UHGV virus genome: UHGV-0204260
Reading direction: 5' to 3' (one strand)
DNA: 45,765 bases
DNA from: a virus
The translations under genes and the position numbers were made by a program. The notes beneath the pieces were generated by a model, which was given only the letters and a program-made list of their open reading frames with translations, had not been told where the DNA came from and ran no database searches. Below, piece after piece: positions 612 through 43,995 of this stretch; the stretch's first letter is position 1; each line of letters opens with the position of its first letter.

Positions 612-650
612 TTGACGTAGATTGAGTGGTGGTGCATAGTATCTACATCA
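612..650. promoter_or_regulatory. Divergent promoter/operator: TTGACGTAGATT (612-623) facing inverted copy ATCTACATCA (641-650), with TAGTAT -10 at 637-642
   Basis: -35-like TTGACG and a -10-like hexamer at sigma70 spacing. The same 10-mer recurs genome-wide. Likely drives both the plus operon 673-1696 and the minus endolysin gene. Confidence 0.5.
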
Positions 651-672
651 AATGATGAGTGAGGAAGAAATC

Positions 673-816
673 ATGGTGATGGTCAAATTCAAAGAAAACG
701 GACGTTGCGGAGTGTTCGGACTTGAGCAAATCAAAATCCGTCCGTGCGGCAAGGTTGTTGCGCCATTTGGTCTGGTGCAGATGCGTGAATGCGAGATTGT
801 TGAATATATTAAGTGA
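673..816 (+). CDS. Hypothetical small protein (47 aa)
   Basis: ATG at 673 with GAGGAAG RBS directly after the promoter. Stop at 814-816, just before the RBS of the next gene. Confidence 0.4.
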   Translation: MVMVKFKENGRCGVFGLEQIKIRPCGKVVAPFGLVQMRECEIVEYIK

Positions 817-824
817 GGTTGATA

Positions 825-1082
825 ATGACGCAGCGCGAAGTGTACCAATTATTTATTGAGTGGTTTGATTCGATTGGATTCGATGACATGGCATATAGCG
901 AAAAGGATAAGTTATGGCATGGCTTTTCTGTTGGATATTGCCACGACAATAACAAGGCTATGTTATCAGCACTCCAGCAACTACTGGAAATCTACGACGA
1001 CCAATCCGGCAAAGTCTGGGCAACATCAAGCAAGCGCCGCGCTCTGGATAATGCGCGCGCGGCGGTTAATAAGGCATTGTGA
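825..1082 (+). CDS. Hypothetical protein (85 aa)
   Basis: ORF-track ORF 813-1082. The likely start is the ATG at 825 (MTQREV...) with a GAGG RBS. Confidence 0.55.
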   Translation: MTQREVYQLFIEWFDSIGFDDMAYSEKDKLWHGFSVGYCHDNNKAMLSALQQLLEIYDDQSGKVWATSSKRRALDNARAAVNKAL

Positions 1083-1090
1083 GAAACAAA

Positions 1091-1696
1091 ATGAAACTTA
1101 TCGACATGTTAGTTCAAGAATTGCCTAAGCGTGGTGGGTGGCCTGAAGGTGTAAATGAAATAGGGCAGGATTATGATGGAGAATTAATGTTTTATGGGCG
1201 CGGTAATCCAAGGACTAGAATTTATCTCCCTTTATCCTCTGACCATAGAAACCTGAACCGTCGCGATGGTGACAAAGTAACAAAGGATAGATACGAATCC
1301 GCGCTCGCCGCATCACAAAAGCCAGCATGGAACGGCGAAGGTATGCCGCCAGTTGGTGCAAAAATAGAATTCTTCATTAATCCAAGGTTAGTATACCGCA
1401 ATGCCTGGATTCCTGATGCTGGCACTGAAATGGAAGTTGTGGCGCACAAAACAACAACGGACGGGAACGATGTTGCTGTTTGCTATTGGGATGATGGTGG
1501 CGCTGGTCGGTCATACTGCTTCGTACCGAAAAGCCTAAAACCGCTACGCACAGAAGCAGAAAGGAAGCGCGATGAGGCAATAAAGGCAATGCAGAGAGAA
1601 GCTGACGAGGGTGACAACTGGATTTATAGCGAATACGAAATCATTTACGACGCCATCGCAGCAGGCAAGATTCCCGGCGTGAAACTGGATGATTAA
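1091..1696 (+). CDS. Hypothetical protein (~201 aa)
   Basis: Long ORF (track 1079-1696). The ATG at 1091 has a purine-rich RBS. No recognisable motif. Confidence 0.6.
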   Translation: MKLIDMLVQELPKRGGWPEGVNEIGQDYDGELMFYGRGNPRTRIYLPLSSDHRNLNRRDGDKVTKDRYESALAASQKPAWNGEGMPPVGAKIEFFINPRLVYRNAWIPDAGTEMEVVAHKTTTDGNDVAVCYWDDGGAGRSYCFVPKSLKPLRTEAERKRDEAIKAMQREADEGDNWIYSEYEIIYDAIAAGKIPGVKLDD

Positions 1697-1774
1697 AACA
1701 ATATTCAGCGTCGTAGAGATATTGTGCTATGCGATAATAATATTTGTTCTATGCATGCTGATAAGATGAAACCA

Positions 1775-1802
1775 AGCCCTCACTTCGAGGGCTTTTTGTT
1801 TG
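1775..1802 (+). terminator. Rho-independent terminator (AGCCCTC-acttc-GAGGGCT + T-run)
   Basis: GC hairpin followed by TTTTTGTTT after the plus operon. It overlaps the 3' end of the convergent minus gene. Confidence 0.6.
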
Positions 1803-2766
1803 CCGATTGCCATGCCTCGCGCTGCTTATCAAGCCTTTCTTGCGACGATTCAAGAATGACCGGCTCACCATCCATTAACAATGCCGGGGTTTGTGCGCAA
1901 TGGCAATTCCTGCGGTTAGCAACTTCGCTATAAAACGTGTCAATCTCTTCTGGTGTAAAAAACCGTCCATGTCTCGCCGCATGAGTCTGGCGAGTTGTGC
2001 GCATCAATGCAGATTGCCACAGCATCACCGTCTCAATACCTAATTCTTCGCGCGCCTCAATAACTTCTCGCCTGTTTGCCTGCCTGAGTGTTCCGGTGAT
2101 TTCGGTTTGCGCTATCTGTTTCGCGTAGCTGTGAGATACATCAACGCGCTTAACGATATCATCTTCAACGTCGCGAGGATTAGCGCCACGGGCAATGCCT
2201 TCCATAATGACAGATGCCAGTTGCTGACGGGAATAATCACTCAATCCTCGCCAGTCTGAATATCCGGATGTGTACGCCAGTTGCAGGCGATTCAGATATG
2301 GCTCACTGTAGAGTATCGCAGCAATAGGTCGCTGTTCAGCATAAACCGGAGACAGACTTGACAGCTCGGAGTTAGCCTTCTGCGTTCCGGCCTGATACGC
2401 ATCACCAATGAATACGTTAGCCCACATCCTGCCGTGACCGAAATCATCACCTTCAAGCAGAATCTCGTCAATCAGCGCCTGCAATTCATCCATGAATGTA
2501 GCGGCTCGCGCACTGCTGAGGTCATAGAAATACAGGCCGCTTGATTCTGCGTTAGTTTGACTATTCGGAATGGTGCGAAACAACTCAAGCGCACGACTCC
2601 TGAGTTGTTTGTATTTGCGCGTTATCACCTTGTCCATCTTTGACAGGCGAGTCGCAGCTCCTAACGGGTCGGTCAGACTCTGCGATATGCGCGGTTGAGG
2701 AAGTCTGGCGTTAAACCGGAGTATCTTCATTTTCATCTTCCGGTGGTGTGTCTTCCATATATCCAT
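1780..2766 (-). CDS. Head morphogenesis protein (Mu F / SPP1 gp7-like)
   Basis: 328 aa ORF immediately downstream of and overlapping the portal gene, the usual position of a Mu-F-like minor head protein. Confidence 0.7.
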
Positions 2767-42242: not shown

Positions 42243-42616
42243 TTTTTCACCTCTAATCCTGCTTGCTCAATTGCCAGTTCATATGCATCCATTGCGTCAC
42301 CAAATCCATTGGAGTAATCAACCGTGTAGCCTTTATTTAATGCCGCTCTTGAATCAATGAAATCCGGAGACTCAATCTCAATTGCTGCGCGCGATGCTCG
42401 CCACGCCAGAAACGTATAAACCTCTAACTCCTCTCTCTCCTCATCGGAATAATATGGCCTGTCAAAATTCTCACTAAACCACTTCTCAAACTGCTCTCTA
42501 CTCGTCATCTTCACTTCCTCCACTATCCAGCCCATCTTTCTACGGTTATTGGCAATAAACTCATCCGATGTAACAAACAGGGTTCTTCCTGATTTATGCT
42601 TAATATCCCATCTCAT
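42239..42616 (-). CDS. Hypothetical protein (125 aa)
   Basis: ORF in the early operon. Confidence 0.5.
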   Translation of the reverse strand: MRWDIKHKSGRTLFVTSDEFIANNRRKMGWIVEEVKMTSREQFEKWFSENFDRPYYSDEEREELEVYTFLAWRASRAAIEIESPDFIDSRAALNKGYTVDYSNGFGDAMDAYELAIEQAGLEVKK

Positions 42617-42782
42617 TTAGTACGTCCTCAGCAAGTTTGCGGAACATGATTTGCACTCTTGCTACTTTTCGCCACTCAGCCTCGGTGAGAATCATATCTT
42701 CTTGTTGCGGTATTCCTGACATTTCGCATGGCGGTAATGGCTCATAATCTACTGCCTGTTTCTTGCGCTTCGTCTTCCCCAT
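42600..42782 (-). CDS. Hypothetical protein (60 aa)
   Basis: ORF with a basic N-terminus. Confidence 0.4.
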   Translation of the reverse strand: MGKTKRKKQAVDYEPLPPCEMSGIPQQEDMILTEAEWRKVARVQIMFRKLAEDVLNEMGY

Positions 42783-43236
42783 GGTGGCCTCTTACATTGC
42801 GAAGAAGTGAATTAAACAGATTGCTGACGTTAACTTCCTGCTCACGCCATGAATAACGCCACAGCTTCTTGTGGTGGTCATAGCTTCGCGTTACATCACC
42901 GTTATGAAACATAATGCGGATGCGGCTTTTCACGATTCGGTAATCAATGTCAGTGGCAGAGCTGATTTCTTTCACCTCAGCGCCAGCGTTATCAAGCAAA
43001 TGGCACTTAATCGCATCATCAATGCCAGCAGCATCATCAGAGATGAAATATTCATACTGCCACTTACCACCACGAATCACTGACTTCTCGCGGCGAATGA
43101 AGCCAAGAGCGAGCATCTCATGCAGGCGGTGCGTTGTAGTGCTTGAATGCTTGCCGCCGCAATGCTTTTCAATATATGCGCGCGTTGCTCCCGGGTGATT
43201 GAGAATCACGCGCATGATTTGTGATTTATAGTCCAT
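42742..43236 (-). CDS. Hypothetical protein (164 aa), possible winged-helix N-terminus
   Basis: ORF only. Confidence 0.45.
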   Translation of the reverse strand: MDYKSQIMRVILNHPGATRAYIEKHCGGKHSSTTTHRLHEMLALGFIRREKSVIRGGKWQYEYFISDDAAGIDDAIKCHLLDNAGAEVKEISSATDIDYRIVKSRIRIMFHNGDVTRSYDHHKKLWRYSWREQEVNVSNLFNSLLRNVRGHHGEDEAQETGSRL

Positions 43237-43483
43237 GCTCTCGTTCCTCTGCTGCCTGATTGAAGTCTTCTGCCGTGTAGAGATGTCCGTTGCGCGTGTT
43301 CCATGACTTCACTGCTGATGCCTGACGAGGCCACTCATCAGTACCGCACCCACACTGCGAGCAAGCAACGTAATAGCCATTGGTATTCTTATCGCTGTAC
43401 GCATCGTTACTGTTGCAAAATGGGCATTCCAGTAATCCCTCATCATTCATCATCGGCATATGTGGCACTGTCATTTCAACCAC
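43226..43483 (-). CDS. Lar-like restriction-alleviation-type zinc-finger protein
   Basis: 85 aa with the pattern ECPFCNS...ACSQCGCG typical of the Lar family. Confidence 0.6.
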   Translation of the reverse strand: MVEMTVPHMPMMNDEGLLECPFCNSNDAYSDKNTNGYYVACSQCGCGTDEWPRQASAVKSWNTRNGHLYTAEDFNQAAEEREHGL

Positions 43484-43665
43484 TCCCCAAGATTGTTAAA
43501 TTTAGGTGCATCGCCAGACCAGTCGATAACATCTTTCTGCTGGCTGCGCTTGCGTTGCAGTCGGTTGCGCACTTCTCGCAGCTCGCATTCCAGCCATTCG
43601 CGAGTACGCTCAACTTCATTCAGTCGCTGGATTAACGATTGTTCGTACAGCTCGTCATGCGCCAT
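43471..43665 (-). CDS. Hypothetical coiled-coil protein (64 aa)
   Basis: ORF only. Confidence 0.45.
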   Translation of the reverse strand: MAHDELYEQSLIQRLNEVERTREWLECELREVRNRLQRKRSQQKDVIDWSGDAPKFNNLGEWLK

Positions 43666-43725
43666 TTATAATTTCTCCCGTAGAATTTTATAACAACGTG
43701 CTCAACGCACAGATAGCCTTCATCC

Positions 43726-43920
43726 TCAACCGTTACTGGTTGAACTATAAACAACCGCAGATATAAGTTCGTCAGCCTTTTCACGACCTGCAACCTCCGC
43801 TTCAAGCGCCAGTGAGCACATGGCAGTTTCCACAAACTTAATGGTATCCTCGCGGACATTAAGTATTTCCATAACCTCGCGAACTTCCTTCTGGTATCTC
43901 GCTGCTATTTCTTTGTATCG
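43726..43920 (-). CDS. Hypothetical protein (~65 aa), first gene of the minus early operon
   Basis: Likely start MRYKEI at 43920. Track ORF 43726-43953. Confidence 0.4.
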   Translation of the reverse strand, partial: RYKEIAARYQKEVREVMEILNVREDTIKFVETAMCSLALEAEVAGREKADELISAVVYSSTSNG

Positions 43921-43952
43921 CATTTCCACATCACCTTTTCCGTTGTGGTACA

Positions 43953-43995
43953 ATCTACGTCAATAAGTATTGACTAAGTGATGTAGATTGGTCAA
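43953..43995. promoter_or_regulatory. Divergent early promoter/operator region with ATCTACGTCAA (43953-43963) and GTGATGTAGATTGGTCAA (43978-43995)
   Basis: Opposed motif copies, plus the same GTAGATTGGTCAA 13-mer seen at 5096-5108. Confidence 0.45.

Follow-up and report, generated by a model that had tools for sequence, protein, structure and literature searches.

The early promoters of virulent coliphages (T7 A1-A3, T5 and the T4 early set) are read by the host polymerase, are present in many copies per genome, and combine near-consensus -35 and -10 boxes at 17 bp with conservation past the hexamers and shared start regions. We describe a similar arrangement in the phage genome UHGV-0204260, the whole 45,765-nucleotide stretch of DNA that was analysed (the window), in which an 11-mer, TGAYGTAGAWT, recurs in the intergenic regions. 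Unlike the coliphage early promoters, however, the promoters here draw their -35 and -10 boxes alike from one 11-mer, with a non-consensus TAGAWT fixed as the -10 box, and further copies are found in antisense orientation, within spacers and over start sites. We suggest, with a probability of roughly 0.62, that the 11-mer is a lineage-specific building block of host-type (sigma70) promoters for early and accessory ("moron-like") units. The kind of element is ordinary; this particular promoter family has not been described so far.

A second likeness is to morons and to the promoter-early stem-loop (PeSL) cassettes of T4-type phages, in which a promoter and a terminator surround variable accessory genes lying between conserved, often late, genes, and in which homology breaks at the promoter. 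The sequences are unrelated, though; the stem-loops in the window are ordinary terminators at cassette ends and not a fixed part of the promoter, and some of the units hold core early genes too.

The window is the complete genome (~45.8 kb) of a virulent siphophage of enterobacteria, a member of the Skatevirus/Cedarrivervirus group, which counts ~200 GenBank genomes, including Skate, seszw, E1, Sf11, swi2 and IME207. Its replication module has 95% identity to Shigella phage Sf11 (Cedarrivervirus), and outside that module there is 88-91% identity to Salmonella and Escherichia phages such as LPST49, SeSz-2, swi2 and seszw (Skatevirus). The direction of transcription alternates between gene blocks, with terminators, often bidirectional, at the convergent junctions. 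The predicted map set out below, of about ten early or accessory promoters drawn from one word and about eight extended -10 late promoters, offers an explicit view of transcription in a large phage group used in biocontrol and phage therapy; regulatory annotation is absent from these intergenic regions in the GenBank records listed.

Enrichment and location of the 11-mer

Exact TGAYGTAGAWT occurs nine times in the window against 0.07 expected, and none of 100 shuffles of the sequence reached nine. Allowing up to one mismatch gives 19 matches against 3.25 expected, and no other 8-mer in the genome is as over-represented as GACGTAGA (8 against 0.46). The family is therefore real, strongly enriched and conserved. 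The initial annotation had proposed some 17 copies, to be compared with shuffled sequence, and had placed them at every change of transcription direction; the enrichment bears the family out, its coordinates were correct within 1-2 nt, and the number of true copies comes to about 15-16:

Plus strand: 613, 5069, 5091 (CGGTGTAGATT, two mismatches), 5114 (degenerate), 5144, 5161, 28966, 30707, 34648, 34679 and 43979
Minus strand: 640-650, 7605-7615, 10334-10344, 10351-10361 and 43952-43962

All of the real copies are intergenic, 23-125 nt upstream of a start codon. Bona fide copies are present in seven of the eight divergent switch regions, whereas the convergent ones have terminators instead and no copies, and so the proposed link with strand switches stands for the divergent kind only. 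The eighth divergent region, between the cro-like and sak4 genes, contains only a variant at 14263..14274 (plus strand, TTGACGTATCTT) that had been counted as a member and that we reject. It has three mismatches and is part of a separate promoter, TTGCGT-17-TATCTT, of the Sak4/replication operon; at the equivalent position in Klebsiella phage VLCpiS13b the CG-TATCTT part is retained and the TGA part is not. Three one-mismatch matches were also set aside: those at 1174 and 45664 lie within coding sequence and are at chance level, and the one at 21127 is degenerate.

Promoter geometry

The copies fall into two main registers. In the -35 type, TTGACGTAGAWT, position 4 is always C, a T always precedes the word, and a TAnnnT box lies exactly 17 nt downstream (copies at 612, 5143, 10362 and 34647). 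In the -10 type, (G)TGAYGTAGAWT, the TAGAWT end is itself the -10 box, and TTGAC(A/G) is found 17 nt upstream (5161, 10334, 28966 and 30707). Two copies at 17 bp therefore yield TTGACG-17-TAGAWT. That a -35-like TTGACG is joined to a -10-like TAGAWT in one word, and that two such words 17 bp apart form a near-consensus sigma70 promoter, had both been proposed from the letters alone; we agree on both points, with 5143-5171 and 10362-10334 as the examples and 17 bp as the commonest spacing in relatives.

When promoters were sought independently of the word, the best intergenic sites were the motif sites, with 10 of 12 consensus positions at 5143 (TTGACG-17-TAGAAT), 28948 and 30689 (both TTGACA-17-TAGATT) and 34647 (TTGACG-17-TATAGT), and 9 of 12 at 612 and 10362. 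All six have a near-TTGACA -35 box and a TAnnnT -10 box at 17 +/- 1 bp, lie in non-coding DNA upstream of genes, and point with those genes. The 3' sides of the -10 copies at 5161, 10334 and 28966 also have a start region, (A/C)TCATCG(A/G)AAC, in common. The sites are as follows:

612..623, plus: P612, -35-type copy TTGACGTAGATT; the -10 box is CATAGT at 635-640 (17-nt spacer) or TAGTAT at 637-642; invariant in relatives
640..650, minus: TGATGTAGATA (one mismatch), antisense across the -10/start region of P612 and pointing to the lysis operon (gene 567..127)
5069..5079, plus: TGATGTAGATA, antisense across the -10/start region of leftward P5107; kept in relatives that have no rightward gene downstream
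5107..5102 (TTGACC) and 5084..5079 (TAGTAT), minus: P5107, a leftward promoter
5091..5107, plus: CGGTGTAGATT (two mismatches) followed by GGTCAA; read on the minus strand, TTGACC-AATCTAC, the -35 box of P5107 and then an antisense copy
5114..5124, plus: TGATGCAGATT, degenerate and variable in relatives, probably a partial member only
5143..5171, plus: P5143, TTGACGTAGATT (-35 type), 6 nt and TGACGTAGAAT (-10 type), giving TTGACG-17-TAGAAT upstream of a 70-amino-acid gene (5203-5415)
5181..5195 and again 28986-29005, plus: shared leader GAAACGAGATTGAGG, the same leader as GAAACGAGAT...
7605..7615, minus: solo copy TGGTGTAGAAT, directly after a terminator, at ~-27..-17 of the extended -10 promoter TGTTACAAT (7603..7595), which lies upstream of the putative small-terminase gene 7551..7132
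10334..10362, minus: P10362, TTGACGTAGAAT, 6 nt and TGATGTAGATT, giving TTGACG-17-TAGATT; leads the leftward early operon (first gene 10303..10157)
28948..28976, plus: P28948, TTGACA-17-TAGATT with -10-type copy TGATGTAGATT at 28966-28976; leads the accessory cassette 29000-29890, which ends at a terminator (29894-29913)
30689..30717, plus: P30689, TTGACA-17-TAGATT with -10-type copy TGGTGTAGATT at 30707-30717; its cassette carries tRNA-Ser and tRNA-Arg (31202-31371)
34647..34689, plus: P34647, TTGACGTAGATT (-35 type), 17 nt, TATAGT at 34670-34675, then TGACGTAGAAA at 34679-34689 (~-3..+8); leads an operon containing the ParB/KorB-like gene
43952..43995, both strands: divergent pair between two early-type operons, TTGACGTAGATT on the minus strand (43963..43952) and TGATGTAGATT-GGTCAA on the plus strand (43979-43995), overlapping other promoter-like sites (minus, TTGACC-18-AATACT; plus, TGGTACAAT at 43946-43954); the first rightward gene is p74 (~44024-44248)

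A 13-mer, GTAGATTGGTCAA, is shared by 5095-5107 and 43983-43995, and together with the leader shared by 5181 and 28986 it supports the earlier view that control cassettes have been duplicated.

We propose that host RNA polymerase with sigma70 would read these sites, with TTGACGTAGAWT supplying the -35 box and TGAYG-TAGAWT the -10 box TAGAWT, and with single copies pairing with an ordinary partner box, as in TTGACA-17-TAGATT or TTGACGTAGATT-17-TATAGT. The start of transcription would then fall within the conserved CAT of the common start region, ~7 nt downstream of TAGAWT.

One further sigma70-like site, at 31714-31743 on the minus strand, scores 10 of 12 (TTGACG-18-TAGAAT, then ACATCA) and has no GTAGA element. 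It lies inside the gene at 31589-31963 and may be due to chance or be an internal promoter.

Conservation in relatives

The comparison drew on 51 viral contigs, with the terminase gene as anchor. All relatives with TerL identity from 69% upwards carry the word, at densities of 3-9 per 10 kb; at 64% it takes a variant form, and at ~50% it falls to background, where neither the word nor an obvious replacement was found. In VLCpiS13b, an annotated Klebsiella phage, 15 of 20 matches fall in the intergenic 9.9% of the genome (p=8e-12), and seven of nine divergent regions have a copy. Comparison with the intergenic regions of related phages had been named at the outset as a check on the family, and the word is clearly kept in them. 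Orientation could be judged from the five copies that lie in gaps between genes of the same direction (7605 in the window; 681, 698, 5936 and 46607 in VLCpiS13b), all of which point with their genes; within divergent regions orientation is uninformative.

P10362 occurs in at least 160 GenBank phage records, none of them outside this group, and most of the records listed have no annotated feature there. The double motif was not found in 185,579 bacterial species genomes, and in IMG/VR it is restricted to this 45-48 kb phage cluster.

The conservation pattern follows the promoter geometry. Spacing between same-strand copies in relatives peaks sharply at 17 bp (34 distinct contexts), the TTGACG class has TAnAnT exactly 17 nt downstream, and, as an unbiased check, the GTAGAT element was sought in the conserved TTGACN-17-TAnnnT promoter families and found in 8 of 11. 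Alignments of orthologous promoters, P10362 among them, show both 11-12-mers to be invariant, with the intervening 6 nt and the upstream flank drifting freely. Averaged over seven promoters, entropy is 0.02 bits in the -35 box, 0.25 at -29..-24, 0.65 at -23..-18, 0.12 at -17..-13, 0.05 in the -10 box and 0.6-0.7 in the flanks, figures that are partly circular in that the orthologues were chosen by similarity. The distant Yersinia phage P400 has no 11-mer, yet it has TTGACG-17-TAGATT with a similar start region, and because of this we suggest that the TAGAWT box is the older, ancestral core read by polymerase and that the remaining bases of the 11-mer are a lineage-specific addition.

To the initial annotation, the inverted pair at 612-650 and the phased array at 5069-5171 had looked more like operators of a dimeric regulator than like simple promoters. 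The word itself is asymmetric and has no dyad of the kind expected of dimeric helix-turn-helix (HTH) operators such as those of lambda Cro and CI. Besides the 17-bp peak, inverted pairs lie at 27 bp in convergent and divergent arrangements alike, other spacings range over 21-31 bp, and there is no helical phasing. The proposal is therefore not supported.

The sub-lineage at 64% TerL identity, which includes L034 and L189 and in which the motif variant is TGAAGTAGAT, has a dense cluster of its own: five copies within 80 bp at 6124-6204 of L034 (and in L035), including a perfect inverted pair, TTGAAGTAGAT-N7-ATCTACTTCAA. A 152-amino-acid protein with three HTH repeats (phrog_323) is encoded beside the L034 cluster; it is restricted to that sub-lineage and was dropped as a candidate reader.

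Cassette exchange at the promoters

Downstream of the promoters, relatives diverge at once into several unrelated cassettes, and at 30689 the break comes right after TAGATT. As homology breaks right after them, the promoters are thus joints of cassette exchange. The likeness to morons and PeSL cassettes holds in that variable genes are enclosed by a promoter and a terminator and homology breaks at the regulatory element, and the cassettes at 5143-5565 and 28948-29913 both have terminators. The fixed stem-loop that adjoins a PeSL promoter has no counterpart here, an upstream terminator being found only at some sites (7653-7636, and in one relative). In the mechanism that we favour, each cassette would close at a terminator, often a bidirectional one, and the conserved promoter would double as the exchange joint between relatives. 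As a marker of cassette-swap joints, the word should be useful for phage engineering and genome reduction.

The breaks at the edges of the word might also suggest that it has no transcriptional role and is a recombination linker, kept by repeated cassette exchange, or else an artefact of chance or composition. Chance is excluded by the enrichment, and a pure linker would need neither a 17-bp phasing that reproduces TTGACG-17-TAGAWT nor a fixed direction relative to genes; nor would a linker be expected to leave invariant words around a freely drifting 6-nt gap. We regard this explanation as very improbable.

The most reduced seszw mutant (MZ375355; L198) has at 34907-34950 the equivalent of P612 with a 17-bp deletion that removes the spacer (TGATGTAGATACTAT|ACGTCAAC...). 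The deletion fits loss of the downstream cassette.

A separate class of predicted late promoters

Motif promoters nearly always face the non-structural side of divergent regions. The late minus-strand operons are instead preceded by extended -10 sites, TGnTAnAAT, which have no -35 box:

594-602, minus: TGATAGAAT, lysis
4155-4163, minus: TGATATAAT, portal
7595-7603, minus: TGTTACAAT, small terminase
21135-21143, minus: TGATACAAT, extended -10 site
28928-28936, minus: TGATATAAT, tail
30674-30682, minus: TGATATAAT, major tail
34630-34638, minus: TGCTAAAAT, head-tail genes
41425-41433, minus: TGTTATAAT, extended -10 site

Twelve of the 14 TGnTAnAAT matches in the window are on the late strand, although the total, against 8.6 expected, is not significantly above chance. 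What is striking is the placement, with such a site ahead of every late structural or lysis block. The late class forms a set apart from the motif promoters and hints that transcription changes from -35-dependent to -35-independent, a switch in which the motif promoters would serve the early and accessory units and the extended -10 promoters the late structural and lysis operons.

The TGATATAAT site at 4163..4155 (minus), a short way ahead of the portal gene, directly abuts a terminator hairpin (4154..4131). Going by the layout of the sequence, transcripts from the upstream gp68/HNH unit would stop at this hairpin, and those from the 4163..4155 promoter, starting inside it, would escape.

Back-to-back early and late promoters recall the phi29 p4 switch, where the early A2b and the late A3 promoters are so placed; in both cases the early promoters possess a -35 box and their late neighbours do not. 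Such a geometry would here let one bound factor repress early and favour late transcription, an analogy of architecture only. In contrast with phi29, the late promoters here are of the extended -10 type and may need no activator, and no p4-like protein is known in this lineage.

The late promoters of the phage are of the extended -10 type (TGnTAnnnT), and the 11-mer also has a TG upstream of TAnnnT. Each copy could be a self-sufficient, -35-independent "long extended -10" element, with tandem copies acting as tandem promoters. Sigma regions 2 and 3 could recognise it, or a phage factor could redirect the host polymerase to it, as T4 MotA/AsiA does at MotA-box middle promoters (sigma appropriation). 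The word covers exactly -17..-7, where sigma domains 2 and 3 make their contacts, and at 7605, 43952 and 43979 a solo copy with no -35 box stands ahead of a gene. In relatives, 159 of 282 distinct contexts not of the -35 type match a -35 box at three or fewer of six positions. Every solo copy, however, adjoins another plausible promoter (TGTTACAAT at 7595; TTGACC-18-AATACT and TGGTACAAT in 43950-43995), and conserved copies that end in A (TAGATA, TAGAAA) lack the essential T at -7. The TG of the 11-mer is three bases upstream of TAGAWT, at -17/-16, and not one base from the hexamer at -15/-14, and by definition it is not an extended -10 box. Finally, a scan of ~40 proteins against PHROGs and Pfam recognised no phage RNA polymerase, sigma or anti-sigma factor and no MotA/AsiA-like family, although remote homologues could escape such scans. 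We consider the self-sufficient element improbable and retain the paired sigma70 boxes as the better account.

A possible second reader

Several features sit poorly with a word that is read by sigma70 polymerase and by nothing else. The TAGAWT bases at -29..-24 (0.25 bits) and the TGAYG bases at -17..-13 (0.12 bits) are constrained relative to the mid-spacer (0.65 bits), and we know of no sigma70 requirement for either; relative to an extended -10 box, the TG is displaced upstream by 2 bp. There are also conserved copies whose position bars them from acting as hexamer boxes in the promoter that contains them. One promoter family of the Klebsiella group has the word within the spacer (TTGACG-A-TGATGTAGATT...TAATTT), and the copy at 34679, which ends in AAA, lies at the start site of P34647 (~-3..+8). 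Those at 640, 5069 and 5091 are antisense, with antisense copies spanning P5107 (TTGACC-AATCTAC...TAGTAT-ATCTACATCA), and the 5069-5124 set is retained in relatives where the terminase gene abuts it and there is no rightward gene. At 43952/43979, neither member of the divergent pair is matched by a consensus partner box. Literature searches yielded no promoter study and no transcript 5' ends for any member of the lineage. Because bases outside the hexamers are conserved, and because copies occupy spacer, start-site and antisense positions, it is possible that the word has a second reader besides the polymerase.

This raises the question of whether the word is primarily, or additionally, an operator. 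A phage-encoded protein could bind an asymmetric site of ~10 bp (core TGAYGTAGA) anywhere in a promoter and shut off the -35-dependent early and accessory promoters; its binding could also free or activate the back-to-back late extended -10 promoters. By analogy with the C1 operators of phage P1, which are asymmetric 17-bp sites, the resemblance to promoter boxes could then be an overlap of operator and promoter. As with C1 operators, the word is dispersed genome-wide across many promoters, always lies in promoters, and overlaps their -35 and -10 boxes; in contrast with P1, no C1 homologue or repressor has been identified here, and the lineage is virulent. Such a protein would account for the conserved bases outside the hexamers and for copies at -35, -10, spacer, start-site and antisense positions, and the C/T freedom at position 4 is the same in the start-site copy at 34679 as elsewhere. 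Moreover, two late extended -10 promoters, that for lysis (594-602) and that for head-tail genes (34630-34638), have an antisense TTGACGTAGATT at ~-35..-24.

In most cases, however, the copies coincide precisely with a -35 or a -10 box at 17-bp geometry and face the same way as the genes, which is predicted for an element read by polymerase and not for a freely placed operator. To our knowledge, none of the known host regulator sites matches the word. The phage proteins that could read it are candidates only:

4842-5048, minus: gp68, 68 amino acids, phrog_13301; modelled as a three-helix HTH-like bundle (predicted local distance difference test, pLDDT, 81.6); 206 records
13941-14183: Cro/YdaS-like HTH protein
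35058-35867: ParB/KorB-HTH protein; ~190 close records
42742-43236: MarR-like protein
~44024-44248, plus: p74, first gene right of the 43979 copy; 207 records

The Cro-like gene had been singled out as the only HTH candidate, a view that does not survive the presence of the MarR-like, ParB/KorB-HTH and three-helix gp68 proteins. The distribution of the Cro-like protein rules it out as the reader: its gene was found in 25 GenBank phage records, ~18 of them in this group, compared with at least 160 for P10362 and ~206 for lineage core genes, whereas a repressor of the Cro/CI type would accompany its operators everywhere. Its own divergent region is the one that lacks a true copy, and no cro-like gene was detected in seszw mutant MZ375355, which retains motif promoters (the comparison covering the mutant genome only). 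The MarR-like protein is disfavoured as well, since its gene is patchy in distribution and is deleted, and so dispensable, in a viable, genome-reduced seszw mutant of 36.6 kb (PMC9825161).

Almost all genomes of the lineage have genes for gp68, p74 and the ParB/KorB-HTH protein, each located immediately downstream of a motif cluster, and the 36.6-kb mutant has kept all three; that for gp68 is found in all ~206 lineage genomes and is always the first after the terminase-portal motif cluster. Lineage-wide presence is, on the other hand, true of many genes, and typical HTH, MarR and ParB proteins bind dyads, whereas the site has none. Fold matches for gp68 are weak, being mostly to HTH domains in the PDB with none significant (best Foldseek E=0.65), and PDB sequence searches for p74 and the MarR-like protein gave uninformative matches. 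Distant ParB homologues (45-48% identity) and P400, which has a p74 homologue (36%), are without the word, and therefore phylogenetic profiling could not single out a reader.

We thus hold the operator, whether as a rival to the promoter reading or as a layer added to it, to be somewhat unlikely, though live, and in a form that involves neither the Cro-like protein nor a dimeric dyad site. A rather doubtful extension is that the 11-mer is read twice, by host polymerase and by a small phage protein on the asymmetric core TGAYGTAGA (gp68, p74 and the ParB/KorB-like protein being candidates), so that blocking of all -35-dependent early and accessory promoters would hand transcription to the back-to-back extended -10 late promoters. 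If a phage protein does read the extra conserved bases, the system would be a compact model of a global early-to-late switch, and dual reading would make it a genome-wide, one-word switch in a virulent siphophage.

Other features of the genome

An Rfam scan of the window returned two tRNAs and nothing else. A ~500-bp AT-rich non-coding stretch at 10400-10920, which separates the leftward early operon from the primase operon, has six of the eight genomic GGGAAGC/GCTTCCC repeats (10591, 10630, 10638, 10702, 10742 and 10827), three of them as CGGGAAGCG, together with a poly-C/T tract, and the start of the Sf11 GenBank record falls here. In appearance the stretch resembles a replication origin of the iteron type or a packaging site. 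The terminase region has on either side of it one of two paralogous genes for HNH endonucleases (phrog_99; the first also PF13392), at 4164-4655 and 7797-8300, both on the minus strand. Among 8-mers over-represented genome-wide and found mostly within genes are TGCCAGTG/CACTGGCA (16 against 3.7 expected, 12 of the 16 in the same orientation) and GGTGATGT (14 against 2.8 expected).

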